Origin: a virus
DNA length: 41,221 bases
Reading direction: 5' to 3' (one strand)
Virus record (IMG/VR): IMGVR_UViG_3300004242_000001
Span: 1-41,221 of that record
This document shows positions 6,940 to 41,221 of this stretch, piece by piece. The notes beneath the pieces are model-generated. The model saw nothing but the letters and a program-made list of their open reading frames with translations, made no database searches and was not told the origin of the DNA. Positions within the stretch are counted from its first letter, which is position 1, and every line of letters starts with the position of its first letter. The translations under genes and the position numbers were made by a program.

Positions 6940-7658
6940 TCACGGCAAATTCAGCGCGCCCAAACTCATAAACATCGCCTCAATCGCCCGCGCCGCCTCT
7001 TCCTCGCTCATCGTTGGCGTCTCGTCCTGCGCCGCCGCAAACTTCGGCATCAAATCCTCTGGCGTAAAAGGCGCGTCCTCCTTCCCCGTGTGCATCTGGT
7101 ACAGCACATTCCCCAAAAACGCGCCCACAATCGCCATCCGCAAATCTGCTCGCTCCTCGCCAAACGGCTCCAACGCCTCGTATGCCTGCCACTCAATCAG
7201 GTCTGCGCCCGTCATCGAGCGCAGCATCCTGTTCACATTCGGGACCCCCAACTCCTTCGCCAGCCTCACGGCAAAACGCCGCAGTGGGTCCCGCTTTAGT
7301 TTTTTAGCGTCTTGTCCGCGCTCTCGTCATCCATGCCCGAAAGCCGCATCGCAATCTTTCCCAAACGGGTCAAGACCGCGCCGCTCTTCTTCGCCAGCGC
7401 CCCAACCTGGTCATCCCTGAAAATCCGCGTCCCGTCTTCCGCGTACAACGCCTTCACCAGCAACTTCGGCATGAAGTTCGTCATATCGGGCGGCAAAGGC
7501 TTTCCTTTCTCATCCCATTGCACCACTTCGCCCTGGTACTTGCTCGCCTGTTCCCCATCCAACCCGCGCACCACCACCCGCATCCCATTCCACTCAGGCA
7601 CTTCCACCGTTTCGCTCGGCAGGTCGTTTACAGCCAAAATATCATCTGCGTAACTCAT
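6940..7658 (-). CDS. Tail assembly chaperone G-T fusion made by a -1 frameshift at 7299..7305
   Basis: The -1 frame after A AAA AAC reads …LKKLKRDPLRRFAVRLAKELGVPNVNRMLRSMTGADLIEWQAYEALEPFGEERADLR…, which resembles the lambda gpT / DUF4035 pattern, and runs to the stop at 6940. Confidence 0.7.
7296..7658 (-). CDS. Tail assembly chaperone (gpG-like)
   Basis: 120 aa between the major tail and tape measure genes. It ends in …CTA AAA AAC TAA, which contains a slippery heptamer. Confidence 0.75.
   Translation of the reverse strand: MSYADDILAVNDLPSETVEVPEWNGMRVVVRGLDGEQASKYQGEVVQWDEKGKPLPPDMTNFMPKLLVKALYAEDGTRIFRDDQVGALAKKSGAVLTRLGKIAMRLSGMDDESADKTLKN
7299..7305 (-). promoter_or_regulatory. -1 programmed ribosomal frameshift slippery site A AAA AAC
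   Basis: X XXY YYZ heptamer directly before the gpG-like stop codon, with an open -1 frame downstream. Confidence 0.7.
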
Positions 7659-7669
7659 CGCTCATCCTC

Positions 7670-8107
7670 CTAAGACGGGGTAAAGGTCGAAACCGCGCCG
7701 CTCACCTTCAGCGTGAACTCAGCGGACATTTTTTTGTCAACAGGCGTGCTCGGCTTGAACTTCGTCACCAGCGCCGTAAACTGAAACCCCTTCGCCCCGC
7801 CTGGCAAAATCGCCTGCCAATTGCCCTTCCTGCGGTTCAGCAGGTCATGCAGCATCCCGTCCTCTTCATCCTGCGTGGCGTCAGACGGCAGCCAGTTCAC
7901 CTTCACCCCAATCTCGCCGCCCGAAAGCAGCGTCCCAATATGCTCCTCCCACCCCCCGCTCCCATGATGGGTCGCCTCGTCCGTCTTCAACGAGATTTCA
8001 GGCGGGTTGAACTCCGTCACCTCGGCAATCGCCGTAAACACCTCGGTTGTCGCCCCGTCCCCGCGTTTCAAAATCGTGCCATAACCAGGAATAACGCTTG
8101 TAGTCAT
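7670..8107 (-). CDS. Major tail (tube) protein
   Basis: 145 aa; position is correct, and the sequence resembles TP901-1/HK97-type tube proteins (…GTILKRGDG…FTAIAEVTEFNPPEISLKTDEATHHGSGGWEE…). AGGAG RBS. Confidence 0.75.
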   Translation of the reverse strand: MTTSVIPGYGTILKRGDGATTEVFTAIAEVTEFNPPEISLKTDEATHHGSGGWEEHIGTLLSGGEIGVKVNWLPSDATQDEEDGMLHDLLNRRKGNWQAILPGGAKGFQFTALVTKFKPSTPVDKKMSAEFTLKVSGAVSTFTPS

Positions 8108-8155
8108 TGCTTTTCTCCTTTACGTTTTTTCAAAATTCAGCGCCTCGCGCCAAAC

Positions 8156-8545
8156 TTATCGACCATGCCAGATAATCAAATCCAAATTCACCCAATGCCG
8201 ATCCAGTTCAGGGTCATGGTTATCCCGCGCATTGTCCCCGTCCACAAACGTCGCGTAAACCGTCGCCCCGCCCATCGTCCCCACGTACCCCGCCGCCGCC
8301 GCAATCGTCTCCTCCGCCAACTGCTTCGCCGCCAAATACGTCGCCCCATAACACTCCAACTGATAGCGCGGGTGTCGCGTCGCGCTCGTGCCGTTCAGCG
8401 TCGTCTCAATCGGGTCGCTCACCATGAAATACAAAATCGCGGGCAGCGTTGGTTGTTGCGGAAGCGCATTCGGGTAAACGCGGCTACCCGCGCTCGTCCC
8501 TACCCCCGCTAAAAAAGAAAATAAGTCCTCTGCAAAAACGCTCAT
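8156..8545 (-). CDS. Tail completion protein (Tc1 type, DUF3168-like)
   Basis: 129 aa directly upstream of the tube gene. The pattern …SRVYPNALPQQPTLPAILYFMVSD… is typical of DUF3168. Confidence 0.6.
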   Translation of the reverse strand: MSVFAEDLFSFLAGVGTSAGSRVYPNALPQQPTLPAILYFMVSDPIETTLNGTSATRHPRYQLECYGATYLAAKQLAEETIAAAAGYVGTMGGATVYATFVDGDNARDNHDPELDRHWVNLDLIIWHGR

Positions 8546-9096
8546 TCCTTCGCCGCCTTCTCCACCAGTTTCGTCAACGCCCGCGCCACATCGTTCTGCG
8601 CCGCTGTCTTGCGCTCGTCAAACGCGGGTCTCATGTACGGTCTCGCCTTTATCGTCACCGACCGCTTCAACACATACTGAACCTGTCCGCTCGGCGAAAC
8701 CATTATCAAATTCCCGCCCGCCGTTTTTCGCAGCTTCAACTTCGGGTGCTTGCGCGGACTGTCCTTATAAGTCCCAACGGGGATAGCCAAATACTTCGCG
8801 CTCTTCGGCGTAACCACCCCGCCAAACTCATGAATCGCCGCATACTCCAAATTCGTCCCCACCTCCGCCACCGCCGTCCGCGCCCCATCCATCGCCACCT
8901 GAATATGCAACGACCGCGCAAGCACCCTTGTTCGCATCAGCCCATTCTTGCTGATGTTCTCAATTGCCCCATGCAAAAACTGCAACGCTCCATCCTTCGC
9001 CGCCTGCGCCAATGCCAGCCCTGCCACAGCCTCATCCAGCGCGTTGAACTTCCGCGCCAGTTCCGCCATGCCTGTAACGACAATTTCGTCGCTCAT
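8542..9096 (-). CDS. Neck protein (Ne1 type, HK97 gp10-like)
   Basis: …LEYAAIHEFGG…KARPYMRPAFDE… matches the HK97 gp10-family signature. Gene order fits. Confidence 0.6.
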   Translation of the reverse strand: MSDEIVVTGMAELARKFNALDEAVAGLALAQAAKDGALQFLHGAIENISKNGLMRTRVLARSLHIQVAMDGARTAVAEVGTNLEYAAIHEFGGVVTPKSAKYLAIPVGTYKDSPRKHPKLKLRKTAGGNLIMVSPSGQVQYVLKRSVTIKARPYMRPAFDERKTAAQNDVARALTKLVEKAAKE

Positions 9097-20292: not shown

Positions 20293-21528
20293 TTATGTGA
20301 GCAAGATTGGCGTCAATCCTGTAAACAAGCGCCACCGCTCGATTATCACCGCCGCATAGATCGGATCCAATTCCACCGCCCTGCACCGCCTGCCCAACTG
20401 CTCGCAAACAATCACAGTCGTCCCACTCCCTGCAAATGGATCAAGCGCCAAATCGCCAGGCAAACTTGAGTTGACTAACGACCGCTCGACCAATAAAAGA
20501 GGCTTCATCGTTGGATGGTCATCGCTGCGCTTCGGTCGGTCGATTTGCCACACATCGCTTTGTTTGCGATCCACAACCTCACGAATCCGACCTGCATCTC
20601 CACGCCATCCATACCAAAGCGGCTCGAACTGTGTATGGTAATCTTTGCGCGAAAGCACCAGTTGATCCTTCATCCAGATAATCGTGCTCGACCAATGGAA
20701 TCCCTGTTCCCTCAAAGCCTTGTCGATGACGGGCCACTCCTGGGCGCTCATCGCCAGGTAGATGGGTGCGCCCTTTTCGCTGGCGTCGTAAATACTCTTC
20801 ACTGCCGCGCGGATAAATTCGGGGAATTTGTCCCCCAGATTGTCATTTTTCATCGTTCGCTTTTTATATCCCTGCGCGTTATCCTTCTCGATGTCCTCTC
20901 CATACGCAACATTCCACGGTGGGTCAGTCCATGTAACTTTGACCTTTTCGTCGCCGAGCAAAGCCCTCATCACGTTTACGTCTCTGCAATCCCCAATAAA
21001 TAGCCGATGGCTTCCAAGCGCCCACAACTGACCCTCTTCCGTTTTCCACTTCTCGACCAACTCATTCGCATGTTCCACCAACTCAACAGGGTCCGCAGTT
21101 TCTTCTTCAATTTGACCGCCAGCGTCGAGAAGCAATTTTTGCAATTCCTTGTCGAGAAAACCCAGAGCGTCAAAATCCAGACCAGCCGCTGCATCCTCTG
21201 CAATGACCGATGCGTCCCACGCCAGGTCTATTTCCGCAACTCTGTTATCCAGGTATGCCAGTCTCCGCGCTTCGCCAGTCGCATCATCCAGGTTCAAATC
21301 CTGACGCTGCACAACGACCAGTTCATCTCGGCTTGTTGGCACAATCCGAACCTTCAGTCCCGCCTTCCTCGCTGCTTCCAGGGTTTTATTTCCAGCAATT
21401 ACGTTTCCATCTTTATCAGTCAAAATGGAACGCCCTGCCCCCAACTCTCGTATCGACTGTTCAAGAAGTTCTTTCCCCCGCCCTGTGCCTTTGTTGGCGT
21501 TGCGCTTATCGAATTTCAAATCATCCAT
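20293..21528 (-). CDS. ParB-like N-terminal domain fused to a beta-class N6/N4 DNA methyltransferase, DPPW type (predicted m6A)
   Basis: Motif IV TWTDPPWNV, motif I DPFAGSGTT. The N-terminal 100 aa is paralogous to that of the next gene (NANKGT…GAGRS…VIAGNKTLEAARKAG). Confidence 0.8.
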   Translation of the reverse strand: MDDLKFDKRNANKGTGRGKELLEQSIRELGAGRSILTDKDGNVIAGNKTLEAARKAGLKVRIVPTSRDELVVVQRQDLNLDDATGEARRLAYLDNRVAEIDLAWDASVIAEDAAAGLDFDALGFLDKELQKLLLDAGGQIEEETADPVELVEHANELVEKWKTEEGQLWALGSHRLFIGDCRDVNVMRALLGDEKVKVTWTDPPWNVAYGEDIEKDNAQGYKKRTMKNDNLGDKFPEFIRAAVKSIYDASEKGAPIYLAMSAQEWPVIDKALREQGFHWSSTIIWMKDQLVLSRKDYHTQFEPLWYGWRGDAGRIREVVDRKQSDVWQIDRPKRSDDHPTMKPLLLVERSLVNSSLPGDLALDPFAGSGTTVIVCEQLGRRCRAVELDPIYAAVIIERWRLFTGLTPILLT

Positions 21529-22921
21529 GTTGGTTCTCCTCTCCCCCTAAATCGCGCTCTTCGATTTGGGGGGATGTCGCTGTACCCAGCGACAGGGGGG
21601 TCGGATTTTTGCCCGTCAATAAATTCCACCTCTCCAATGTAGCCGCCACATATTTCGGCAGCAACTCTGCCCCACGGCAAACTCTCCCCATAATCTCGCA
21701 CGCGATCAACGTTGTTCCACTCCCGCAAAACGGCTCGAAGACAATCTCACCGCGCTTTGTATAAAGCATCAAATGGCGCACTGGCAATTCCAGCGGGAAT
21801 GCCGCTTCATGTCCGTTTGACCTGGCATTCCCCTTGATGTCATCCCAGTACGCCCTCAACGCCCACGACATGCCCGTCCATTCCTGACCACGCTGCTTTC
21901 CTTGCTTGTGATAAAACGCCAAAAGACTCTGCACGTCATCCTCGCGCAGGGCATCCTCGAAGCGCATCGGAGCGCCATCCACGTTTTCATAGGTTCCCAA
22001 ATACTCGCAGTGCTGGTCAATCACGTCTGTCTTTGGCGACGTAGCCATCACCTGACCTTCCTTCAGCCAGTGTCTTACATGCCGCAGGTTCCACCCACGT
22101 GAGCGCAACTCATTTGTCCACTGATCGATCAACAGCAATACATGACGCTTTTGTTTTTTATCAAACGCCGTTGTGAATCCAGTTCCAGTGTTGATCACCA
22201 CCCTGCTTCCATCTCTGCAAGTTGCCGCGTCAATCACACAGCATACCTTTTCGATGAATTCCGCAATTTCCGTCTCACTCTTTTGTTCTTCATACTTCAT
22301 CCCCACCCAATACGGCGGACTGGTAAACGTGAGCGTCGCTTTTTGTGTACCCATAAGGTTATCGATATTGGTTAGGCTCGTTGTATCTCCGCATACCAAC
22401 CGATGAGCGCCAAGCGTCCACACCTGCCCAGTCTCCACGCCCCATTTATGGATCAGTTCATCTCCGTGATCGCTTTGATCACCTGGGTCTTTTCCAGTCT
22501 CATCTCCCAGTCCAGCCTGATCGAGCAACTGCCGCAGTTCCCCCTCGAGGAAACCTATTCCGTCAAAATTCAAACCTGATACAGCATCCTCGGCAATCTG
22601 CTCCGCATCCCAGTTCAAGTCCAACTCGCCTACGCGGTTATCCAGATACGCCAGCCTTCGCGCCTCGCCCGCCGAGTCTTTCAAATCCAGGTCGTCGCGC
22701 TGCACCATTACCAATTCATCCCGCTCGCTTTTGACCACGCGCACTTTCAACCCTAACTTCTGCGCCATCTCCAAGGTCTTGTTTCCTGCAATTACATTCC
22801 CGTCCTTATCGACCAACCCTGAGCGACCTGCGCCCAATTCCTCCAGGGATTGCTTGAGCAGTTCCTGTCCACGCCTTGTGCCTTTGTTGGCATTATTCTG
22901 ATCCAGTTTCAGGTTCGTCAT
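21521..22921 (-). CDS. ParB-like N-terminal domain fused to a DNA methyltransferase, SPPY type (predicted m4C)
   Basis: Motif IV FTSPPYWVG, motif I EPFCGSGTT, and a large insertion between the motifs compared with its neighbour. Confidence 0.8.
   Translation of the reverse strand: MTNLKLDQNNANKGTRRGQELLKQSLEELGAGRSGLVDKDGNVIAGNKTLEMAQKLGLKVRVVKSERDELVMVQRDDLDLKDSAGEARRLAYLDNRVGELDLNWDAEQIAEDAVSGLNFDGIGFLEGELRQLLDQAGLGDETGKDPGDQSDHGDELIHKWGVETGQVWTLGAHRLVCGDTTSLTNIDNLMGTQKATLTFTSPPYWVGMKYEEQKSETEIAEFIEKVCCVIDAATCRDGSRVVINTGTGFTTAFDKKQKRHVLLLIDQWTNELRSRGWNLRHVRHWLKEGQVMATSPKTDVIDQHCEYLGTYENVDGAPMRFEDALREDDVQSLLAFYHKQGKQRGQEWTGMSWALRAYWDDIKGNARSNGHEAAFPLELPVRHLMLYTKRGEIVFEPFCGSGTTLIACEIMGRVCRGAELLPKYVAATLERWNLLTGKNPTPLSLGTATSPQIEERDLGGEENQHG
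21534..21604 (-). other. Two hairpins upstream of the DPPW methyltransferase start (variant of the C/G-rich element)
   Basis: mRNA sense: CCTGTCGCTGGGTACAGCGACA, then CCCCCCAAATCGAAGAGCGCGATTTAGGGGGAGAGGAGAACCAACATG. Confidence 0.5.
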
Positions 22922-23864: not shown

Positions 23865-24119
23865 TTACTTCTTTTCATCATCATGATTTACCCCTATGTT
23901 TCTATGTCTATACTGAAGTTCAACGATATAAGAAAAACGAAACGGAGAAACGCCACGTTTTTCCCAGTGCGTAGTGCAAGCATTGAACTCCCTAATAAAT
24001 ACAGGATACGACATCGGCTCGCCAAAGCGACTTTCTTCACCTTCGCTAAAGCCAGCAAAAAACATTTTATCTTTCAGAATAATGTATTTTTCAAACTTCT
24101 CTTTTTGATATTCACTCAT
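23865..24119 (-). CDS. Hypothetical protein (84 aa from MSEYQKEKF…)
   Basis: ATGA coupling to the DUF5131 gene stop. Confidence 0.5.
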   Translation of the reverse strand: MSEYQKEKFEKYIILKDKMFFAGFSEGEESRFGEPMSYPVFIREFNACTTHWEKRGVSPFRFSYIVELQYRHRNIGVNHDDEKK

Positions 24120-24940
24120 TTCGGCATCTCCCTCCACTCCTGACCATCCAACACGTGCCCAGCCAGTCCCTTCCCCACGCGGACCATCACCTCACCTGCC
24201 ACATCGATTGGTCGATACTTGAAAGTGGTCTTGTCCGTAATCCACGGCAAATGGCTGAGTGGGGCGTGTGCGCCCCACTGTTTGAAGTAAAACGGGATAT
24301 TGTTTGCAGAGCAAAAATCCCGCGCATTTCGTGCCGCGCTCGGTGGCATCCCCCGCGCCTTCGCTCCGCTCTCCCCACCGCATACCATCCAATCCAAAAA
24401 CTCCCAGCCATACCAGCCAACAGCCTCCAGCGCAGGCTCGTAACTCGCCCACGTCCGCCAGCCGTTTCTATGTAAATAATTCATTGGCTTCAATCGCGCA
24501 TCCGCCGCTTTCTGGTTTTCAACGCTCACCCCCAACAGAACATTTGGCAGCGCATCCCGCAAAGTCAAAATTTCCGCCATTCGATCAGGACGCTTTGTCA
24601 AAACGTAATAAGTATGCCTGGGCGTAGATTCCATCACGTCGAATATCTGATAAACATGCAATGGGCGCGTCGTATGGTGGAACAAATCCCCCATAAAAGA
24701 CACGAGTATATTTTGCGGCTTTCTCCACTTGAGCGGTTCCTTCAACTTATGCGGCAGGAAAACAGTCTGCCCGCTCCAGCGTCCGTCATCATCCACGGCA
24801 ACTTGGTACTCAGGTCGTCCCATGCCCTTCATACGGATCGCCATTCGCAGCGCCCAGCAGTTCATGCACCCATCGCTTTTCTTACTGCACCCCACCACCA
24901 CATTCCAAGCCTTACCGCCGTAATCGATTCCTGTTTCCAT
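24116..24940 (-). CDS. Phage Gp37/Gp68 family protein (DUF5131)
   Basis: N-terminal signature …KAWNVVVGCSKKSDGCMNCWALRMA… and conserved length (274 aa). Confidence 0.7.
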   Translation of the reverse strand: METGIDYGGKAWNVVVGCSKKSDGCMNCWALRMAIRMKGMGRPEYQVAVDDDGRWSGQTVFLPHKLKEPLKWRKPQNILVSFMGDLFHHTTRPLHVYQIFDVMESTPRHTYYVLTKRPDRMAEILTLRDALPNVLLGVSVENQKAADARLKPMNYLHRNGWRTWASYEPALEAVGWYGWEFLDWMVCGGESGAKARGMPPSAARNARDFCSANNIPFYFKQWGAHAPLSHLPWITDKTTFKYRPIDVAGEVMVRVGKGLAGHVLDGQEWREMPK

Positions 24941-26276: not shown

Positions 26277-26534
26277 TTAATCATCGAATCGATTGAAGAA
26301 CGCGTCTGCTGCCTGCTCTGCCTCGCGCACCATCCGCAAAACTTCCTCGTCGGGCGTCTCCGCGGTCACCGCCGAAAGCGCGCTGCCCATTCGCAGCATC
26401 CGAATCACGCTGGGGAATTTCGTGCGCGGCGGAAGCGAAGCCAGCATGTTCAAAATATCGTCATCTGCGCCAGGCAATAAATATCCATCCAGCCGCACCC
26501 GCACCTTTTGGGCCTTATTCTTTGGTCTTGCCAT
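26277..26534 (-). CDS. parR: ParR-like centromere-binding adaptor (ribbon-helix-helix type)
   Basis: 85 aa immediately downstream of parM and overlapping it. KVRVRLDGYLLPGADDDILNMLASLPPRTKFPSVIRMLRMGSAL parallels the plasmid R1 ParR N-terminal pattern. Confidence 0.5.
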   Translation of the reverse strand: MARPKNKAQKVRVRLDGYLLPGADDDILNMLASLPPRTKFPSVIRMLRMGSALSAVTAETPDEEVLRMVREAEQAADAFFNRFDD

Positions 26535-27561
26535 TGGGCTTGTCCTTGAACTTCAACGCCATCTTATACAGCCCGCGCGAAATCGCCATCACAGGCTCAT
26601 CCAGCACAATCGCCTTCCCGCTCAACATCTGCGGCATATACCCCTTCAACAACTCCGCGCCGCCGCCAACCACCAGCACAGCGGCAAAGCGTTTGTAATA
26701 CTTGCCCCAGCGGTCTTCGATTGCACCCGAAACGCGCTGGGAATAATCATCGAGCGCCATCTGCAACATCGTTTTTTCAACGCGCTTGTTCCGCAGTTTC
26801 ATATCCAACTCGCCGAGCGTGTACGGCTTCTCGCAATTCAACTGCACCTCGTACCTGCGATTCAGGTCTTCTAGCAGTCTCGTCACGCCCATCTCAATCC
26901 CGCCCGTAAAGCGGTCGATGTCGCCGTTGTCGCGCGTCAACATAAACTCGATGGTCTTGCGCCCAATCGACAGCCCAGCGGTTTCATCCACCCAGTACCG
27001 CGCCCGCTCAGGCATCATCACGCCATCAATCGTATACGTGTAATCGAACATAATCCCCTGCGCCTGCGGCTTCAAAAAGACCTCCGCAACCTCCACGCGG
27101 TACTGCGCCCCGTCAACGCTCCACTCATGCGCCCCAACCATCCACTTCTTCACCGCCGCCTTATATTCCTTCGCCGTCGCCCCCAGCAGCATCTGAAACG
27201 GAAGCCCGACCATCAGCGAAAGCGGCTTGCTGAACTTGCCATAATCCTGCTGGTACTTGGTCAAAGTCGCATAAAAAATCGAATGAATTTCAGACGTTCC
27301 CGCCAGGCGGTCAAACGCCAGATTCTGAAGCGGATCGCCGTAATCATGCGCATTTTCGCCCACAAAGAACGACCCAAACTTACTGCGAACCTCCATCGGG
27401 CGGCGCTTTGCGCTCTTCTCGCTCGCGCCCAGCAGGTCCTCATACCGCGCCATCCCGTTTGATGACACCAGGCTCAACACCTGCGCCCCGCCAGCGGGAC
27501 CCCAAAACTTGGTCGCGCCCATCCCCAAATCACATCCGCCATAAATCAATTCAGTATTCAT
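26515..27561 (-). CDS. parM: ParM/StbA-family actin-like segregation ATPase
   Basis: Phosphate-1-like GGCDLGMGATKF, adenosine-motif-like AVLVVGGGAELL, and C-terminal MAISRGLYKMAL. Confidence 0.75.
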   Translation of the reverse strand: MNTELIYGGCDLGMGATKFWGPAGGAQVLSLVSSNGMARYEDLLGASEKSAKRRPMEVRSKFGSFFVGENAHDYGDPLQNLAFDRLAGTSEIHSIFYATLTKYQQDYGKFSKPLSLMVGLPFQMLLGATAKEYKAAVKKWMVGAHEWSVDGAQYRVEVAEVFLKPQAQGIMFDYTYTIDGVMMPERARYWVDETAGLSIGRKTIEFMLTRDNGDIDRFTGGIEMGVTRLLEDLNRRYEVQLNCEKPYTLGELDMKLRNKRVEKTMLQMALDDYSQRVSGAIEDRWGKYYKRFAAVLVVGGGAELLKGYMPQMLSGKAIVLDEPVMAISRGLYKMALKFKDKPNGKTKE

Positions 27562-31948: not shown

Positions 31949-32055
31949 GCTACCGTCCGTGATACTTAGATTTTTTCAAGCCGTCCAAGATACCTACAAG
32001 CCTTTTCTGCCATTTTTGTAAAAATTCTCGACACGCGGAGCCTTACACCCAAGAG

Positions 32056-32104
32056 CCCCACCCCGCCCGGAGAATTCAGCCCTCCCCCCCTACCTCCCCC
32101 ACCC
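32056..32104 (-). other. G-quadruplex-prone tract (seven G-runs of at least 3 on the minus strand)
   Basis: Minus strand: GGGTGGGGGAGGTAGGGGGGGAGGG…CCGGGCGGGGTGGGGC. Confidence 0.5.
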
Positions 32105-32141
32105 ATGCGACATAACCCCACGTTATGTCGCATCCTTTTTT
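32105..32141 (+). terminator. Plus-strand-oriented intrinsic terminator-like hairpin inside a minus-strand operon
   Basis: ATGCGACATAAC-cccac-GTTATGTCGCAT (perfect 12-bp stem) followed by CCTTTTTT on the plus strand. Confidence 0.5.
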
Positions 32142-32243
32142 GACCGTCAGAACCGTTTTCTACACCCCGCCCCGCCATGCGGCAAAAGGCGAACAAACCG
32201 ATTCTTTCTACTACTGCATACAAAGTGAAGACGTGCAACAGCA

Positions 32244-32947: not shown

Positions 32948-33412
32948 TTATTCAACCTTGTAAAGTTTTGTCATAAAATCGAGATTGCTCTCAGCCTCAT
33001 CACTTTCATTGCGTTTTTCAAGTGCGTCCGCAATCCGTTGAGTTTGAGCTGCAAGCAACAAAGTGGCACGGACATGAGCCTGCATCAGTTCAACCACGAC
33101 TTGATGCGCCACGTCAGAAAACTCGCCCATATATTTATCTTGTGACGCGACTCCGTTTTCGATTTCCCGATATGTTTGTATTTCCTGGGCAACAGCCTGA
33201 TTGACTATGCCAGTCTCGACCATCACGACCCGCGCGCGCTTGGCAACCCGTTCTTCTTGTTTCTTTACCCATTCAGCGTGAATCTCCTGGTGAAAGGCGA
33301 GCAGTTCTTCATAATGCTCTTCAAAGCCTTCTGTGTCTTCAATATCCCAGCATGGATCTTTCACCCAGCCATCTTTCAACTTCTGAATCTCTTCTTGTGT
33401 TTTAATCATCAC
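32948..33412 (-). CDS. Hypothetical helical protein (154 aa), coupled to the Mini-A-like gene
   Basis: ATGA overlap with the upstream stop; Glu/Lys-rich. Confidence 0.55.
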   Translation of the reverse strand: MMIKTQEEIQKLKDGWVKDPCWDIEDTEGFEEHYEELLAFHQEIHAEWVKKQEERVAKRARVVMVETGIVNQAVAQEIQTYREIENGVASQDKYMGEFSDVAHQVVVELMQAHVRATLLLAAQTQRIADALEKRNESDEAESNLDFMTKLYKVE

Positions 33413-34305
33413 TCACCATCCTCTCGTTCTTCATACTCACTGGCAAAGCGCTCCAGCTCATAGCGCATTTCCTTTTCACGTCCAACGACCTGTTCCCACT
33501 GCTCGGCGTCAATCAACTCTACAATCCCGTTGCGGACCAGGTCTGCCAGCGTGCGCGGTTCGACAGCATCCAGTTCCCAGGATGATTCGCCAAACTTCTC
33601 TGCATAAGCCTGGTATCGGCTGTCTGTTTCCTTCGCAGGGTTTTCGGGAGGCTGCCATTCTTCGACCTGGTTGTAATTGAGCGCCAACCGATGAACTCGA
33701 ACATCATCACTTTCAGCAAACATGCCCAAGCGTTCCCGAATATCTCTTGTCATATCAATCCCACTCGGATCGTGATCGCCCAAATAAAACAAATGAATTT
33801 GATGCCCATGACCAATCGCCCTGGCGATGCGCTTCCCCGCTTCATACATTGCCGATGACGAGCTATAGCCTTTATTGGCTGTAAATCTCACATGCAAGTC
33901 TCTGCAGACGGGTTCGAGAATGCCGCTCAGCGCATCCTTCTCGACCATGACCTCAACGTGACAAGGCTGCCCCTGCCAGCGATCCACGCGAAATTGACTT
34001 GCCGCAGCTCGCACGATTTGCGCAGGCGACGTCCACGCTGTTGGGATCACCGTCTCACGCCCACGGTCTTCAATCATTTCCCAATCCACCAATCCCGCCA
34101 GTCGCGCATCGCTGACCAGGTTGCCGATTCGCTTGTATGACTTCACCGAATTTTCGATATAGTCCCTTGCCACAAGCTGGTAATACAACTGGCGCAAACT
34201 CAAGCGGTAACCCATCGCGCGATATTCGTTCAAAATCCCATTCGCAGTCTCGATCACCTTGAGACTTGCCGCGTTGAATTTGTGCTCTACGAATTTTTCT
34301 TTCAT
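33409..34305 (-). CDS. Spo11 / Topo VI subunit A-like protein (5Y-CAP + Toprim only; Mini-A-like)
   Basis: LSLRQLYYQLVARDY…DARLAGLVDWEMIEDRGRE (CAP with a YY tyrosine motif). HVEVMVEKDALSGIL (Toprim Glu). VRFTANKGYSSSS…HLFYLGDHDPSGIDM (DxD). ATG at 34305 via ATGA coupling. Confidence 0.65.
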   Translation of the reverse strand: MKEKFVEHKFNAASLKVIETANGILNEYRAMGYRLSLRQLYYQLVARDYIENSVKSYKRIGNLVSDARLAGLVDWEMIEDRGRETVIPTAWTSPAQIVRAAASQFRVDRWQGQPCHVEVMVEKDALSGILEPVCRDLHVRFTANKGYSSSSAMYEAGKRIARAIGHGHQIHLFYLGDHDPSGIDMTRDIRERLGMFAESDDVRVHRLALNYNQVEEWQPPENPAKETDSRYQAYAEKFGESSWELDAVEPRTLADLVRNGIVELIDAEQWEQVVGREKEMRYELERFASEYEEREDGE

Positions 34306-34607
34306 GCTTCGCCTTCCATCACTTCCAGCATTTTCAAAACGCGCTTCAATGCCCTGCGCTGATTCTCCAGTCCGCATTGAACCAATGCAAGCGGAGCGTT
34401 TTCAAAAACCGTCGCTGTCGGGTAACCCAGCCGCTCATCTCCCTCGACATCAGCCAACACGCCCTCAATAGCTTTGCGAAACGTCTCTTCACGACGCATG
34501 ATTTCCCGCATTGCCATCTCACGCGCCTTCTCGGTGTTTGCCGCGTCATCCAGCACAATGTACAACAATCTATTCAAGTGCATTTTTTCAATTCGTCCGC
34601 TCATCAC
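34302..34607 (-). CDS. Hypothetical protein (101 aa)
   Basis: Coupled ORF, helical and charged. Confidence 0.5.
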   Translation of the reverse strand: MMSGRIEKMHLNRLLYIVLDDAANTEKAREMAMREIMRREETFRKAIEGVLADVEGDERLGYPTATVFENAPLALVQCGLENQRRALKRVLKMLEVMEGEA

Positions 34608-34894
34608 TCCGTCTCCTTTATCATCCTTGCAACAATCGGTTCATCGAACTTGTTTGCAGTCGCAAACACGTGTTTCACCATTGCCAGGGCGTATGGCTTC
34701 CAATACCAATGCTTGCGCTTCCCGTCCCAGGCATAGCGCATGGCAGCCATGACCTTATAAATAACGCTTGGCTTGAGCGCCTTCTTGCGAACCGCCTGGA
34801 TAAATGCTTCGTGCGAACAGTCCGCCATTCTCTCGCTCGATAAAATCGCAATTGCTTCTTCGAGTTTTCTGGTAACGACAACCCTTGGCATCAC
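34604..34894 (-). CDS. Hypothetical protein (96 aa)
   Basis: Coupled ORF, basic. Confidence 0.5.
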   Translation of the reverse strand: MMPRVVVTRKLEEAIAILSSERMADCSHEAFIQAVRKKALKPSVIYKVMAAMRYAWDGKRKHWYWKPYALAMVKHVFATANKFDEPIVARMIKETE

Positions 34895-35838
34895 ATCACC
34901 TCCAACGCCGCGCGGACTTGGCTATCCCGCACGCCAAAATACAAATCCGTCGTCTTCGTGTCCGAATGGCGCATCTGCCTGCGGATTGCGTTCCTCCGCG
35001 CCCCCTCTGGAACTCCAATTCGCGCCAACGCATCGTTGTATGAATACGCAAACGTATGTCTCAAATCATGCGGCTTCAAATCCACAACCCCAGCCGCGCC
35101 CCCAATCATCTTCACCCTGCGCCAAACAGTTCCGCGTGTAATGCGGCTACCGTCCCAATCAGTCACGACTGCCTGTGACTGCACGCCCCGCGTCCGAAGC
35201 CACTCCGCGACCTCGCCCATTGCCGCCGCGCTCACGTCCACAGACTCCTTCTTCGCGCCTTTGCCGAAGACATAAATCTTATTGCCAGCAAAATCCAGGT
35301 CGTTCACGTCCAGCCCTGCCACCTCGCTTTCGCGCAATCCAGCGCTGTTGAACAAAATCCAAATCACACGGTCGCGCAAACCAAGCCAAAAATGCTTGTC
35401 GGTCTGATACCGCAAATGTGACCCAGCGCTTACCACCGCGTTCAATTTCCCCATCTCCGCCTGAGACCTGTCACGCGGACTCGGCTCCACAGGTTGGCGC
35501 TTGATTGCCACCGTCGGGTCATATTCCAACAACCCCTCCTCCACCGCCCACCTAACCAAAACCCGCAGACTTGCCAATCTGCGATTGCGGCTTGCTGGCG
35601 CGACCTGTTTGTCTGCATCCTGCTCGGCAAAATATTTCTTTACATCTGTCGCATTCAATTGGCTCGGCTGAAATACGCAGCCGTTCTCGTTTATCCAAAA
35701 TTTACCAAAGTGATTCACGTCGTTGTAATACGCGCTGATGGTTTTATCTGCGCGTCCATTGACTTGCAGCCACATCCCAAACGCCCCGCGCCAATCCTGG
35801 AAAACTTCGCGCCGAACATCAATCTGCTGTAGCATCAT
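34891..35838 (-). CDS. Tyrosine recombinase (XerC/D / phage integrase family)
   Basis: AGLRESEVAGL (Arg I), KPHDLRHTFA (H-x-x-R), MRHSDTKTTDLYFGV (His, then the nucleophile Tyr). Confidence 0.85.
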   Translation of the reverse strand: MMLQQIDVRREVFQDWRGAFGMWLQVNGRADKTISAYYNDVNHFGKFWINENGCVFQPSQLNATDVKKYFAEQDADKQVAPASRNRRLASLRVLVRWAVEEGLLEYDPTVAIKRQPVEPSPRDRSQAEMGKLNAVVSAGSHLRYQTDKHFWLGLRDRVIWILFNSAGLRESEVAGLDVNDLDFAGNKIYVFGKGAKKESVDVSAAAMGEVAEWLRTRGVQSQAVVTDWDGSRITRGTVWRRVKMIGGAAGVVDLKPHDLRHTFAYSYNDALARIGVPEGARRNAIRRQMRHSDTKTTDLYFGVRDSQVRAALEVM

Positions 35839-37906: not shown

Positions 37907-37949
37907 TGTTTTCTCCTTTTGATTATTGCTTTCAGTGTTGATGTAATTT

Positions 37950-37963
37950 CTTTCTACTGAAAG
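37950..37963. promoter_or_regulatory. Operator-like palindrome CTTTC-N4-GAAAG, copy 1
   Basis: CTTTCTACTGAAAG, preceded by ATTT; covers the predicted start site of the PR-like promoter. Confidence 0.55.
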
Positions 37964-37991
37964 ATTATAACTAATTGCAATTATTTGTCAA
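37964..37991 (-). promoter_or_regulatory. Consensus sigma70 promoter driving 37394..37906 (PR-like)
   Basis: Minus strand: TTGACA (37986..37991), 16-bp spacer, TATAAT (37964..37969). Confidence 0.7.
37972..37983. promoter_or_regulatory. Operator-like palindrome TAATTGCAATTA, copy 2 (within the promoter spacer)
   Basis: Perfect 12-bp palindrome with the same AATTGCAATT core as 37133..37142. Confidence 0.6.
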
Positions 37992-38007
37992 TAGTGAAAA
38001 AATATTT

Positions 38008-38021
38008 CTTTCTATCGAAAG
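38008..38021. promoter_or_regulatory. Operator-like palindrome CTTTC-N4-GAAAG, copy 2
   Basis: CTTTCTATCGAAAG with the same ATTT flank. Confidence 0.55.
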
Positions 38022-38040
38022 GTCGTTGTGTGTGAAAATA

Positions 38041-38054
38041 TTTTCTATGGAAAG
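38041..38054. promoter_or_regulatory. Operator-like palindrome TTTC-N4-GAAA, copy 3, overlapping the repressor start codon
   Basis: TTTTCTATGGAAAG; the ATG at 38047 lies at its centre. Confidence 0.5.
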
Positions 38055-38427
38055 TTTTTCCGATTGGTTGCTGAACGTTCTAAAGCAGAGAAATATGTCT
38101 CAGTCTGATTTAGCCCGCCTTGCAAAAATAGGTACAGGGACAATTAGTAACATCATGAGCGGTAATAGAAAGGTTGGCAAAAACACATTACAAGCCATAG
38201 CTCACGCACTCAAACTCCCCCCCGAAACCGTCTTTCGTGCCGCTGGCATTCTCCCCCAGCAACCCCCAGAAACTGAAATCGCAGAACAAATCATACATCT
38301 CACAAAGGAGCTCCCCGCACAAGAACAAAGTGACATCCTCGAATTTGTAAAACTCCGTCACCGCATCGCTGAAGAGCGGCAAAAGAATGAAGCAAAACAA
38401 CCTCGAAGCAAACCTGCAATCCCTTGA
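38047..38427 (+). CDS. XRE-family helix-turn-helix repressor (CI-like, no S24 peptidase domain)
   Basis: MSQSDLARLAKIGTGTISNIMSGNRKVGKNTLQAIAHAL is a classic HTH_3 motif. Start chosen at MESFSDW… (38047). Confidence 0.75.
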   Translation: MESFSDWLLNVLKQRNMSQSDLARLAKIGTGTISNIMSGNRKVGKNTLQAIAHALKLPPETVFRAAGILPQQPPETEIAEQIIHLTKELPAQEQSDILEFVKLRHRIAEERQKNEAKQPRSKPAIP

Positions 38428-38910: not shown

Positions 38911-39585
38911 ATGGGCTTCCGTTTTCGCAAATCATTCAAAATTGCGCCAGGCATAAAAATCAACCTCAGCAAATCAGGGCTGTCCACGTCCGTCGGCAAA
39001 AACGGAGCCTCGCTAAATTTCGGAAACCGCGGTATCCGCGCGACCGTCGGGCTTCCAGGCACAGGCGTGTCTGCGTCAAAACTATTCGCGTCTAAAACGG
39101 ATGCCCTGCCAAACCATTCACCCGCCGAACTTGAAACGTATCAACAAACTATTATTGACGCGCAACCCGCAAAGCCAAAAGTAAAAATCCCATTCGGTTG
39201 CCTTATCCCAGTAGTATTTGTCGCCACATGCTACCAACTTTTCTTCTGCTCTGCTATCGTCAGCGCCATTATCAACCCCCCACCTACTCCAACCCCAACG
39301 CTCACAGCGACCGCCACGCAGCCGCCAACCTCAACGCCGCGCCCGACTCAAACATCTTTGCCAACCATCACGCCCCAACCCTCGCAAACCACAACGCCAA
39401 TCCATACCAAAACGCCTTACCTCACCCCAACGCTTCCCGCCCAATGCCTGCAAGAATATCCGTCTTTCTGCATCCTGCCAGGTCAACGCATTGTTTGCGA
39501 TCAACTTCCCGCCGATTTTGTCGTTTTACCGCCAGACTCACTTGGTTACGACAAAGATGGCGACGGCATCGGTTGCGAAAACTAA
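38911..39585 (+). CDS. DUF4236 domain - TM - Pro/Thr linker - Excalibur-like calcium-binding domain protein
   Basis: MGFRFRKSFKIAPGIKINLSKSGLSTSVGKNGASLNFGNRGIRATVGLPGTGVS (DUF4236 signature). TM segment LIPVVFVATCYQLFFCSAIVSAII. C-terminal …DKDGDGIGCEN. Confidence 0.7.
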   Translation: MGFRFRKSFKIAPGIKINLSKSGLSTSVGKNGASLNFGNRGIRATVGLPGTGVSASKLFASKTDALPNHSPAELETYQQTIIDAQPAKPKVKIPFGCLIPVVFVATCYQLFFCSAIVSAIINPPPTPTPTLTATATQPPTSTPRPTQTSLPTITPQPSQTTTPIHTKTPYLTPTLPAQCLQEYPSFCILPGQRIVCDQLPADFVVLPPDSLGYDKDGDGIGCEN

Positions 39586-39602: not shown

Positions 39603-41221
39603 TTGGACTCCCTCACCCCACTCCCCTCCGCCATCCCCACTGGCTCCACAGTTGACGCCTACCTCCGTGACAGCGGCGGAGATGGTCAAGACCGCTCCGT
39701 CTCTCGCCAACTTGAAGCCATCACCGAATACTGCGCCAGGCACAACCTCACCCTGCGCCACATCTACAAAGATGCTGCCAAATCTGGAGGCTCCACCGCA
39801 GGGCGTGACGACTTCGACCGCCTCATCTCCAACACCCGCAACGAAGCCGAACGCCCTGCCGCCCTCCTCCTTTGGAACTACGCCCGCTTTGCCCGCGACC
39901 TCGACGACTCAACCTATTACAAATCCCTCCTTCGCAAACGCGGCATCGTCGTCCACTCCCTCACCGACCACATCCCCGAAGGACCATACGGACGCTTCGT
40001 CGAATTCCTCATCGACATCTCCAACGAAGAAAAGCGCCGCCAAACCTCCATCGACAGCAAAGACGGAATCCGCTCCATTGTCGCCCAGGGAGCCGTACCA
40101 GGTGTCCCGCCTCGTGGCATCAAACGCGAACCGCTCATCACCATCAACCCGCGCACGGGTCTCGAACGTAAAAACCACCGCTGGGTTCCCGACCCCGAAT
40201 ATATCCCCCGCGTGCGCACCGCCTTTGAAATGCGCGCCGCTGAAAAATCCCTCGACGAAATCCAAAAAGCCACCCAGTTATTTTCCACCATCAACTCATA
40301 CGCCACCTTCTGGAAAAACCCGATTTATTACGGAACCCTCGTCTACGGCGACGTCACCATCGAAAACTACTGCCAGCCAATAATAGAAAAATCCCTGTGG
40401 GATAAGGTTCAACTTATCCAACAGGGATTTGCCCAATCGAAAAATTTACGTGAAGGTTCCCCAAACCACCCCCGCCGCGCCAACTCCGATTTCATTCTCT
40501 CGGGACTCGCCCGCTGCGCCAAATGTGGATCACCCCTCTTCGGGCGCACCTCCCACCAAAAAACAGGCTACAAATACCAATCCTACCTCTGCACCCTCGC
40601 CTACCGCAAACGCGGAGCCTGCTCAAAAGGACGCATCCCCAAACCCGCCCTCGAAACCGCAGTCATCAACGCCTTCACCAACTACATCCTCCGCCCAGAA
40701 AACGTCACAGAAATGCTGCGCCTAATGGCTGAAGAACAGGCAGGTCTTGCCGAACAGATAGCCGAACAACGCCGAGCGCTCCTCACAAAAATAGCCTCCA
40801 ACAAAAAACAACTTAACAACGTGGTCGATGCCATCGCCGAAAGTGGATCATCACCCGCCCTCAAAACCCGCCTCTCCAATCTTGAACTCGAAAAACTCGA
40901 TCTTGACCTCGCCCTCACCGAACTGGAATCCGCGGCAGCGCTGGAGTCCAGTTCCCAGGCGCCAACCCTATCCACCGCTCAACTTGACAATGCCCTCAAA
41001 GACATCGTCTCCATACTCAAAAGTAAGGAACCCCACGCCCTCAAACTTTTCCTGCGTGGTTTCATAGACCACATCGATGTCGAACGCAACGAAAACACCC
41101 TGCGAGGCACAATTTACTACACTCTGCCTGGCGATGGTACAATCTCAGGAAACAATACTATCCCACCCTCAAGCGGAGACGATGATGTACCTACATCCTC
41201 CCATCCGTCGGGACCGCCTCT
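39603..41221 (+). CDS. Large serine recombinase (integrase); runs off the window end and finishes at 116..118
   Basis: VDAYLRDSGGDGQDRSVSRQLEAI (resolvase catalytic Ser motif), a recombinase domain, zinc ribbon CAKCGSPL…YLCTLAYRKRGAC, and a coiled coil. No ATG; the TTG at 39603 is the first start candidate after the upstream stop. Confidence 0.85.
   Translation, partial: MDSLTPLPSAIPTGSTVDAYLRDSGGDGQDRSVSRQLEAITEYCARHNLTLRHIYKDAAKSGGSTAGRDDFDRLISNTRNEAERPAALLLWNYARFARDLDDSTYYKSLLRKRGIVVHSLTDHIPEGPYGRFVEFLIDISNEEKRRQTSIDSKDGIRSIVAQGAVPGVPPRGIKREPLITINPRTGLERKNHRWVPDPEYIPRVRTAFEMRAAEKSLDEIQKATQLFSTINSYATFWKNPIYYGTLVYGDVTIENYCQPIIEKSLWDKVQLIQQGFAQSKNLREGSPNHPRRANSDFILSGLARCAKCGSPLFGRTSHQKTGYKYQSYLCTLAYRKRGACSKGRIPKPALETAVINAFTNYILRPENVTEMLRLMAEEQAGLAEQIAEQRRALLTKIASNKKQLNNVVDAIAESGSSPALKTRLSNLELEKLDLDLALTELESAAALESSSQAPTLSTAQLDNALKDIVSILKSKEPHALKLFLRGFIDHIDVERNENTLRGTIYYTLPGDGTISGNNTIPPSSGDDDVPTSSHPSGPP
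41162..41221. repeat. Terminal direct repeat, copy 2 (identical to 1..60)
   Basis: Letter-for-letter identity with 1..60. Confidence 0.9.

Follow-up and report, generated by a model that had tools for sequence, protein, structure and literature searches.

The Mini-A subfamily of type IIB topoisomerase A-subunit homologues was named by Takahashi et al. (2019/2020) for proteins of ~300 amino acids (aa) from viruses and proviruses, with an RxxY/FY motif, a glutamate together with DxDxxG, a T2BI box of the form xWELDAL and no B subunit nearby as their hallmarks (PMC7671362). Plasmid-borne Topo VIII is likewise found on mobile elements and also lacks the N-terminal half of the 5Y-CAP domain; it carries a fused or adjacent GHKL/transducer B moiety and an RVELNAM box, and its Tyr is followed by an additional conserved Arg (PMC7671362). 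JetD and MksG, of the Wadjet (MksBEFG) systems of plasmid defence, are likewise stand-alone and Topo VI-A-like. MksG forms a Toprim-mediated dimer that cleaves DNA without ATP, and both proteins are devoid of the catalytic 5Y-CAP Tyr, possess a large N-terminal arm and act with an SMC complex of the same operon (PMC10123090). Reviews to December 2024 call the role of Mini-A unexplored (PMC11302465, PMC11894792). Here we analyse a Mini-A gene in the phage genome IMGVR_UViG_3300004242_000001 (positions 1 to 41,221; this whole 41,221-nt stretch is called the window below). An earlier note on this DNA had identified the product as a stand-alone, Mini-A-like relative of Topo VI-A/Spo11 with no assigned function. 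The family is the right one, with all testable Mini-A features present, and no role is assigned to it in the reviews to December 2024, although the family has been on record since 2019.

The gene and the parts of its product are located as follows (AF2, AlphaFold2; pLDDT, predicted local distance difference test).

33409..34305, minus strand: Mini-A gene, 298 aa, type IIB topoisomerase A-subunit homologue without a B subunit (translation, PHROG, hhalign)
33994..34272, minus strand: 5Y-CAP-like winged-helix region, residues 12-104 (AF2 secondary structure, conservation, Top6A alignment)
33676..33969, minus strand: Toprim domain, residues 113-210 (AF2 topology, conservation, Top6A alignment, weak recurrent Pfam matches)
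33562..33582, minus strand: T2BI box SWELDAV, residues 242-248, the signature that sets Mini-A apart from Topo VI and Topo VIII
33415..33507, minus strand: long C-terminal helix with an acidic end, residues 267-297 (AF2 pLDDT ~96; sequence poorly conserved)

The limits and length of the open reading frame (ORF) given in the earlier note are exact, and the strand, which it had not stated, is minus. The four strings that it quoted are all found in the translation: LRQLYYQL at residues 37-44, the Arg-containing helix SDARLAGLVDWEMIEDRGRE at residues 65-84, VMVEKDA at residues 119-125 and LGDHDPSGIDM at residues 175-185. A longer variant of the ORF opens with an ATG at 34377. The closest homologues are all ~297-303 aa long and start with MKEKF or MAKEKF, as do most homologues overall, and the ATG at 34305 shares an ATGA with the stop codon of the ORF before it. 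Because of these homologue lengths and starts, together with the ATGA overlap, 34305 is the likely start. The existence of at least 8000 homologue clusters and a full-length PHROG 6247 match indicate that the gene is real, far beyond chance.

The AF2 model of the window protein (pLDDT 90.8, predicted template modelling score 0.82) consists of a wing and three helices, the second of which bears the Tyr, followed by a Toprim fold of canonical β-α-β-α-β-α-β topology. Arg38 and the Tyr41-Tyr42 pair are located on the helix spanning residues 37-46, and Tyr42 (codon 34180-34182) is the predicted nucleophile. Glu122 (codon 33940-33942) ends Toprim strand 1, and the D177-H-D179-P-S-G182 segment (33760-33777) follows strand 3. 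As a guess, the C-terminal helix 267-297 might serve dimerisation.

Membership of the family is indicated by the match to PHROG 6247 ('DNA topoisomerase'), which covers the full length of the protein with E=2.9e-112. Mini-A comprises at least 8000 homologue clusters (clustering at 90% identity), from phages that infect archaea and many bacterial phyla, and tblastn finds it in 84 cultured-phage records, many of them annotated 'DNA topoisomerase'. Carriers include Pseudomonas phages NP1 and PaMx25, Achromobacter phage JWF, Xylella phages Sano and Salvo, Chi-like Salmonella phages, Listeria phage LWP01, Roseobacter phage RDJL and the archaeal virus HCIV-1. Identity of the window protein to the full-length matches in cultured phages is mostly 40-49% (43-49% for the Listeria, Salmonella and Pseudomonas proteins), with a few divergent ones at 24-37%. 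The PHROG match and these identities favour a grouping with Mini-A over one with Topo VI or Topo VIII. Conservation was scored in two alignments drawn from many phyla, one of 64 genome-derived and one of 133 database homologues. R38, Q39, Y42, E122, K123, G176-G182 and W243-A247 are invariant in both, and Y41 is conserved in at least 90% of the 133.

All the published hallmarks that we tested are present, namely the length, half a 5Y-CAP domain plus Toprim, RxxYY, E/DxDxxG, the T2BI box, no B subunit and a viral origin (PMC7671362). The window protein and the published subfamily are alike in their ~300 aa, second-half 5Y-CAP plus Toprim architecture, motifs, WELDA box and residence in a tailed temperate phage, and differ in nothing essential. 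The T2BI box of the window's clade ends in Val, while both the consensus and the published xWELDAL end in Leu. The Chloroflexota/Anaerolineae host lineage is not among the hosts quoted from PMC7671362, and a fixed slot between an Xer-like recombinase and a primase appears confined to the window's phage lineage, no other Mini-A locus examined having it. The window protein is an ordinary member of an already described family.

Two other memberships were considered and rejected. Topo VIII is distinguished by its B moiety, RVELNAM box and extra Arg, none of which is present in the window protein; there is no GHKL moiety, and the T2BI box reads WELDAV instead of RVELNAM. With JetD/MksG the protein shares a stand-alone Topo VI-A-like character, a Toprim metal site and the lack of an ATPase domain of its own. 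In contrast to these, Mini-A retains the Tyr, has half their length and is encoded without SMC genes beside it; JetD/Wadjet membership was rejected on the lack of SMC genes in the window and the invariance of Tyr42.

Profile comparison offers a closer view of the relation to Topo VI-A. Top6A sequences were gathered via PDB alignments and a database search, and of 150 representatives clustered at 50% identity the 43 full-length ones were used. Aligned with hhalign to these 43 diverse sequences, the 133-sequence Mini-A alignment gives a probability of 81.8% and P=1.1e-5 over 198 columns, while eleven controls (one reversed, ten column-shuffled) all remain at P>=0.078. Mini-A R38 and Y41-Y42 fall on the invariant R and Y-Y of Top6A, E122 on the Toprim Glu, G146 on G(QP), and D177, D179, P180 and G182 on DxDPxG; in a relaxed, extended alignment E244 and A247 fall on the K-x-E-x-x-A box. 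Both the YY and the DxD residues on which the earlier note had based its assignment are therefore placed on catalytic residues of Top6A. The same catalytic registration is obtained with a narrower, euryarchaeal Top6A profile. Against this profile and against single sequences (yeast Spo11 and part of a Top6A from M. mazei), the local registration is right but P is only 0.016-0.096; significance was reached only with the 43 representatives clustered at 50% identity.

A Pfam scan of 64 diverse Mini-A proteins returns only three families repeatedly: TP6A_N in 11 proteins (best E 0.017) and TOP6A-Spo11_Toprim in 2, both below threshold, and DUF2399, the JetD-type Toprim, in 8 (best E=1.6e-4). The window protein itself has no Pfam match at E<=1 and reaches no gathering threshold. 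Compared with Topo VI-A/Spo11 (PF04406, PF21180; 1D3Y, 2ZBK, 2Q2E, 8URQ), Mini-A has a colinear core of ~200 residues in which the Arg, Tyr-Tyr, Toprim Glu, G(QP) and DxDPxG are matched. In contrast to Topo VI-A/Spo11, it is viral rather than cellular, has no Top6B/Top6BL partner, stays below Pfam thresholds, is not recovered by Foldseek and is ~70-85 residues shorter at the N terminus. The alignment begins at about Top6A residue 72-85, and the N-terminal 70-85 residues of Top6A have no counterpart, indicating that Mini-A lacks the B-binding N terminus. Taken at the sequence level, homology of Mini-A to Top6A with aligned catalytic residues is supported.

As far as tested, the genome encodes no B subunit, in agreement with the earlier note: no scanned ORF of the ~41.2-kb genome matches GHKL/HATPase, and every window ORF of at least 400 aa is assigned to another function.

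We favour, with moderate confidence, the reading that Mini-A is an ATP-independent, Tyr-linked DNA breaking and rejoining enzyme that would serve early phage DNA replication or recombination, not integration. Two copies would assemble on DNA as Top6A, Spo11 and MksG do, with the acidic Toprim residues E122, D177 and D179 holding Mg2+. Tyr42 would then attack a phosphodiester and be joined to the 5' end, with a free 3'-OH on the other side. The break might be resealed, giving ATP-independent relaxation or unlinking of replicating phage circles, or it might be handed to replication and recombination proteins of the kind found beside Mini-A in other phages; either fate would point to replication or recombination rather than integration. 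A precedent exists in MksG, a stand-alone Top6A-like dimer that cuts DNA without ATP, though without the CAP tyrosine (PMC10123090). The location of Mini-A is consistent with such a role. In the window, the gene belongs to an early operon among replication genes, as indicated by a promoter and overlapping gene junctions, and elsewhere its neighbours are replication, recombination or nucleotide-metabolism genes.

The neighbours were surveyed by de novo clustering of the five genes on either side of Mini-A in 77 loci. No family occurs in more than 10 of the 77, and a conserved partner gene was thus not found. The most common neighbours are a helix-turn-helix (HTH) repressor (10 loci), an SNF2 helicase (8), a Tyr recombinase (6) and a primase (6); next in frequency are ParA, resolvase, RecT and a pentapeptide-repeat protein. 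Among cultured phages, NP1 has a ligase, Sak4, a Cas4 exonuclease, a helicase and a primase around Mini-A; RcSimone-Hastad has a DNA polymerase, endonuclease V, a Cas4 exonuclease and a HIRAN protein; and BP12C has ThyX. In prophages the neighbours are SNF2 helicase, RecT, ParA and primase.

Two of these neighbours deserve separate mention. The SNF2-family helicase/ATPase (for example at 7254-8930 of locus L056), mostly at position +1 or +2, is the most common enzymatic neighbour and the sole recurrent ATPase. A pentapeptide-repeat protein with DUF7666 adjoins Mini-A in four loci (L066, 4806-6059, and related Lachnospiraceae prophages). Proteins of this class, Qnr and MfpA for instance, mimic DNA and bind to type II topoisomerases; it is possible that this neighbour is a regulator of Mini-A, though probably in one lineage only.

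Several points weigh against the replication or recombination role for Mini-A that we favour. Top6A and Spo11 need a B-type partner for activity, and a partner-free enzyme is therefore not guaranteed. The neighbourhood of Mini-A is too variable to single out one pathway. The narrower Top6A profile reaches only P=0.04 in hhalign, and PDB searches by phmmer and hmmsearch, started from the protein or from profiles of 32 and 64 homologues, return chance matches only (RecX, TtrD, Rab-GAP). Of the comparisons proposed in the earlier note, the profile-profile one with Top6A is significant, and a Foldseek search of the PDB with AF2 models of pLDDT 79 and 90.8 gives no match at E<=0.001 and no Top6A, Spo11 or JetD among the best 50, which we do not take to refute the relation. 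Its matches (both models against the PDB, the first against BFVD) are generic Rossmann-like, OTCase, PurE and T7-primase-Toprim folds, all at E>=0.014. Cleavage, covalent linkage, dimerisation and resealing by Mini-A are all inferred, and no assay of any Mini-A protein has been published, reviews to December 2024 included (PMC7671362, PMC11302465, PMC11894792).

Among the other readings, one that we regard as unlikely would make Mini-A a hydrolytic Toprim nuclease of the JetD/MksG type, directed early in infection at host, competitor or defence-related DNA and using the Tyr to position the DNA. Mini-A often lies one or two genes from a repressor, at the head of the early operon, and the head of a phage early operon often holds anti-host functions. 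DUF2399 is the strongest single Pfam match (E=1.6e-4, 8/64), PADLOC JetD matches the window protein at E=0.018, and MksG and JetD, themselves homologues of Top6A, cleave as stand-alone proteins with no B subunit (PMC10123090). However, the JetD-like matches span only ~26 residues around the DxD, and neither jetABC nor other SMC genes are nearby. Moreover, MksG and JetD are devoid of the 5Y-CAP Tyr, whereas in Mini-A R38 and Y42 are invariant in all 133 homologues and aligned with the Top6A nucleophile.

The earlier note had also proposed that Mini-A belongs to a coupled recombinase module of five genes. To judge this, we considered 11 distinct close relatives at 64% identity or higher (loci L003/L006, counted as one, L007-L010, L086, L088 and L094-L097). 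The module genes and the other features of this region of the window are as follows.

34891..35838, minus strand: Xer-like tyrosine recombinase, 315 aa (Pfam Phage_integrase 3e-20 plus a SAM-like N-terminal domain)
34604..34894, minus strand: p96, small ORF with no Pfam, PHROG, NCBIfam or PADLOC match and no tblastn match in 85 loci
34302..34607, minus strand: p101, small ORF with a weak phrog_22742 match, its stop overlapping the Mini-A start as ATGA
32948..33412, minus strand: p154, helical protein of 154 aa downstream of Mini-A, 59-62% identical to 146- and 152-aa genes of L086 and L088
28817..31948, minus strand: primase, 1043 aa, with DnaG zinc ribbon and Toprim (NCBIfam dnaG 2.5e-22; PHROG DNA primase; Pfam Toprim_2 and Zn_ribbon_DnaG)
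37964..37991, minus strand: σ70-like promoter with a 12/12 consensus match in a promoter scan, diverging from an HTH repressor gene at 37975..38427
39618..41221, continuing at 61-~118 across the circular junction, plus strand: large serine recombinase of 553 aa (tblastn match to a Resolvase plus Zn_ribbon_recom protein of L086, 43.5% identical over 547 aa)

The promoter, read from 37991 to 37964, likely drives the early leftward operon that contains Mini-A. From the immunity switch, this operon runs through the Xer-like recombinase, p96, p101, Mini-A and p154 to small ORFs and then the primase. The recombinase matches XerC/XerD-like models of NCBIfam at 1e-33 to 1e-36, below the cut-off. The recombinase, p96, p101, Mini-A and p154 are co-directional, with overlapping stop and start codons. 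The ATGA coupling described in the earlier note holds in so far as all five are translationally coupled, while a literal ATGA is found at the p101/Mini-A junction only. The recombinase/p96, p96/p101 and Mini-A/p154 junctions are of the GTGATG type, with a 4-nt overlap if GTG is the start and a 1-nt TGATG overlap if ATG is.

In all 11 close relatives the Tyr recombinase precedes Mini-A, and a primase comes next wherever the contig reaches. Between recombinase and Mini-A, the relatives have 0, 1, 2 or 3 unrelated ORFs. Of p101 only a 52-aa piece is common to relatives, with partial matches in L008 and L086 only. Homologues of p154 are found in L086 and L088, are absent from L003-L085 and are replaced by other genes in L094-L097. 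The window recombinase shares 34% identity with its counterparts in L086 and L088, where Mini-A is 94% and 83% identical. Outside this lineage, no Tyr recombinase adjoins Mini-A in the ~65 more distant genomic loci (none adjacent in L011-L085), nor in the six cultured viruses examined, Xylella phage Sano and Salmonella phage BP12C among them. We take Sano and the Chi-like phage BP12C to be virulent, and the presence of Mini-A in such phages indicates that it is not tied to lysogeny. The adjacency of Tyr recombinase and Mini-A is the inherited gene order of one phage lineage and not a feature of the family. The co-occurrence survey suggested in the earlier note thus bears out the recombinase, Mini-A, primase order among the 11 close relatives and finds it absent outside the lineage, and the five-gene module is not a conserved unit.

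These observations also bear on the idea that the five products form one machine, in which breaks and Xer-like strand exchange would cooperate, for example in dimer resolution, unlinking or a site-specific start of replication. The co-directional, overlapping ORFs and the constant order of recombinase, Mini-A and primase in the 11 relatives are consistent with it. So is the serine recombinase of the window and five relatives, which leaves the Tyr recombinase spare and without an obvious role in integration, and so is an actin-like partition protein, as found in plasmid-like replicons. Nevertheless, p96 and p101 are not conserved (0, 1 or 3 unrelated ORFs take their place in relatives), p154 is limited to the nearest sub-clade, and a recombinase at 34% identity beside a Mini-A at 83-94% shows that the two do not co-evolve. 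In the ~65 distant loci and in six cultured viruses, Mini-A has no Tyr recombinase next to it, and early operons of phages in general often have starts and stops that overlap. We therefore consider a single five-gene machine unlikely.

A further alternative, improbable in our view, is that Mini-A acts as a site-specific nicking initiator, remaining on the 5' end while the 3'-OH primes unidirectional replication of the sigma or rolling-circle type. A 5'-Tyr linkage would leave a usable 3'-OH, and within the early operon Mini-A comes shortly before the primase. A GC skew fixed at -0.25 fits one strand always being leading or displaced, and a C-rich gap with a perfect hairpin (32105-32133) lies upstream of the primase gene. 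Yet a repeat scan near recombinase, Mini-A and primase identified no origin or recognition site, the skew may have other causes, and Mini-A occurs alongside very different replication modules, some with a DNA polymerase of their own. In addition, dimers of the Top6A type make double-strand breaks with little sequence specificity. Equally improbable, as we see it, is that a partner-free, Spo11-like homodimer makes protein-linked breaks in the phage circle and thereby starts replication of a break-induced or recombination-dependent (sigma) type; in this Anaerolineae phage lineage, the Xer-like recombinase beside it would help to process or unlink the replicated circles. If true, Mini-A would be a living model of the ancestral B-less DNA-breaking module behind Topo VI and meiotic Spo11.

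To our knowledge, most of the host phyla involved do not encode Topo VI-B, which counts against a hidden B partner. That Mini-A is the A subunit of an ATP-dependent type IIB topoisomerase with an unrecognised B-like partner from phage or host, an option left open by Takahashi et al. as 'Mini-B' (PMC7671362) and favoured by the SNF2-family ATPase at +1/+2 in most of the 8/77 loci having one, is very improbable, as no GHKL domain was found in the window, no ATPase recurs as a partner across the 77 loci and Mini-A is without the N-terminal Top6A segment that binds Top6B (hhalign; PMC7671362).

The wide spread of the Mini-A family and the strict conservation of its predicted active site bear on whether the Topo VI-A/Spo11 cutting module acts without a B subunit, and also on its possible viral origin. 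The window copy is typical and answers neither question. What the present analysis adds is an independent, controlled statistical confirmation that the catalytic residues of Mini-A align with those of Top6A, a survey in which no universal partner gene appears, and one phage lineage with Mini-A always between an Xer-like recombinase and a primase, which could guide genetics. For experiments on Mini-A, the cultured phages (NP1, PaMx25, Chi-like, Sano-like) offer a far better entry than the phage of the window.

The genome that carries the gene is that of a circular temperate siphovirus-like phage. A 60-bp exact direct repeat at the window ends (1-60 and 41162-41221) points to a circular assembly and a true genome of ~41,161 bp, and terminase, portal, protease/capsid, tape measure and tail genes are present in the window. 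A megablast search of cultured phages with 21 kb of window sequence returned no match, indicating that this is not a known phage. The closest relatives, at 64-84% identity, are all in metagenome-assembled genomes of Chloroflexota/Anaerolineae, one of them integrated in a 4.26-Mb chromosome, and the host is likely an Anaerolineae bacterium. The frame of the large serine recombinase closes across the 60-bp terminal repeat; since the gene spans the assembly junction, it is missing from the ORF list. This enzyme is the probable integrase of the phage, which thus has two recombinases, a serine integrase and the Xer-like enzyme beside Mini-A. A large serine recombinase is also carried by five relatives (L003, L086, L088, L094 and L097).

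On either side of the early-operon promoter stands a copy of an 18-nt direct repeat (37946-37963 and 38004-38021); the two copies may be operators of the immunity switch. The minus strand at 26515-27561 holds a gene for an actin-like ParM/ALP segregation protein, which the relative L003 has as well; its presence alongside the serine integrase hints at a plasmid-like or dual lifestyle. A repeat scan around the genes for recombinase, Mini-A and primase, aimed at dif-like or iteron sites, gave short two-copy repeats and one hairpin only, none convincing. The hairpin region lies in a C-rich gap of ~300 nt 5' of the primase gene (32040-32190), where the perfect hairpin with a 12-bp stem at 32105-32133 is followed by a T-run on the plus strand. 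The gap also contains CCCCxCCCCGCC repeats and is maybe a terminator or an origin element.

The GC skew of the plus strand is ~-0.25 over the whole window, with no switch point and regardless of gene orientation. At third codon positions it amounts to -0.73 in the plus-strand serine recombinase and to between -0.16 and -0.39 in the minus-strand genes. Such a fixed skew suggests a mutational strand asymmetry, as expected of unidirectional or rolling-circle-like replication. Elsewhere in the window, two tandem fusions of a ParB-like domain with a DNA methyltransferase (411 and 466 aa) lie at 20293-22921 and a DUF5131 match (E=1.3e-68) at 24116-24940, all on the minus strand. A DUF4236 match (E=3.6e-20) is located on the plus strand at 38911-39585, and DUF4236 also adjoins the serine recombinase in the relative L097.

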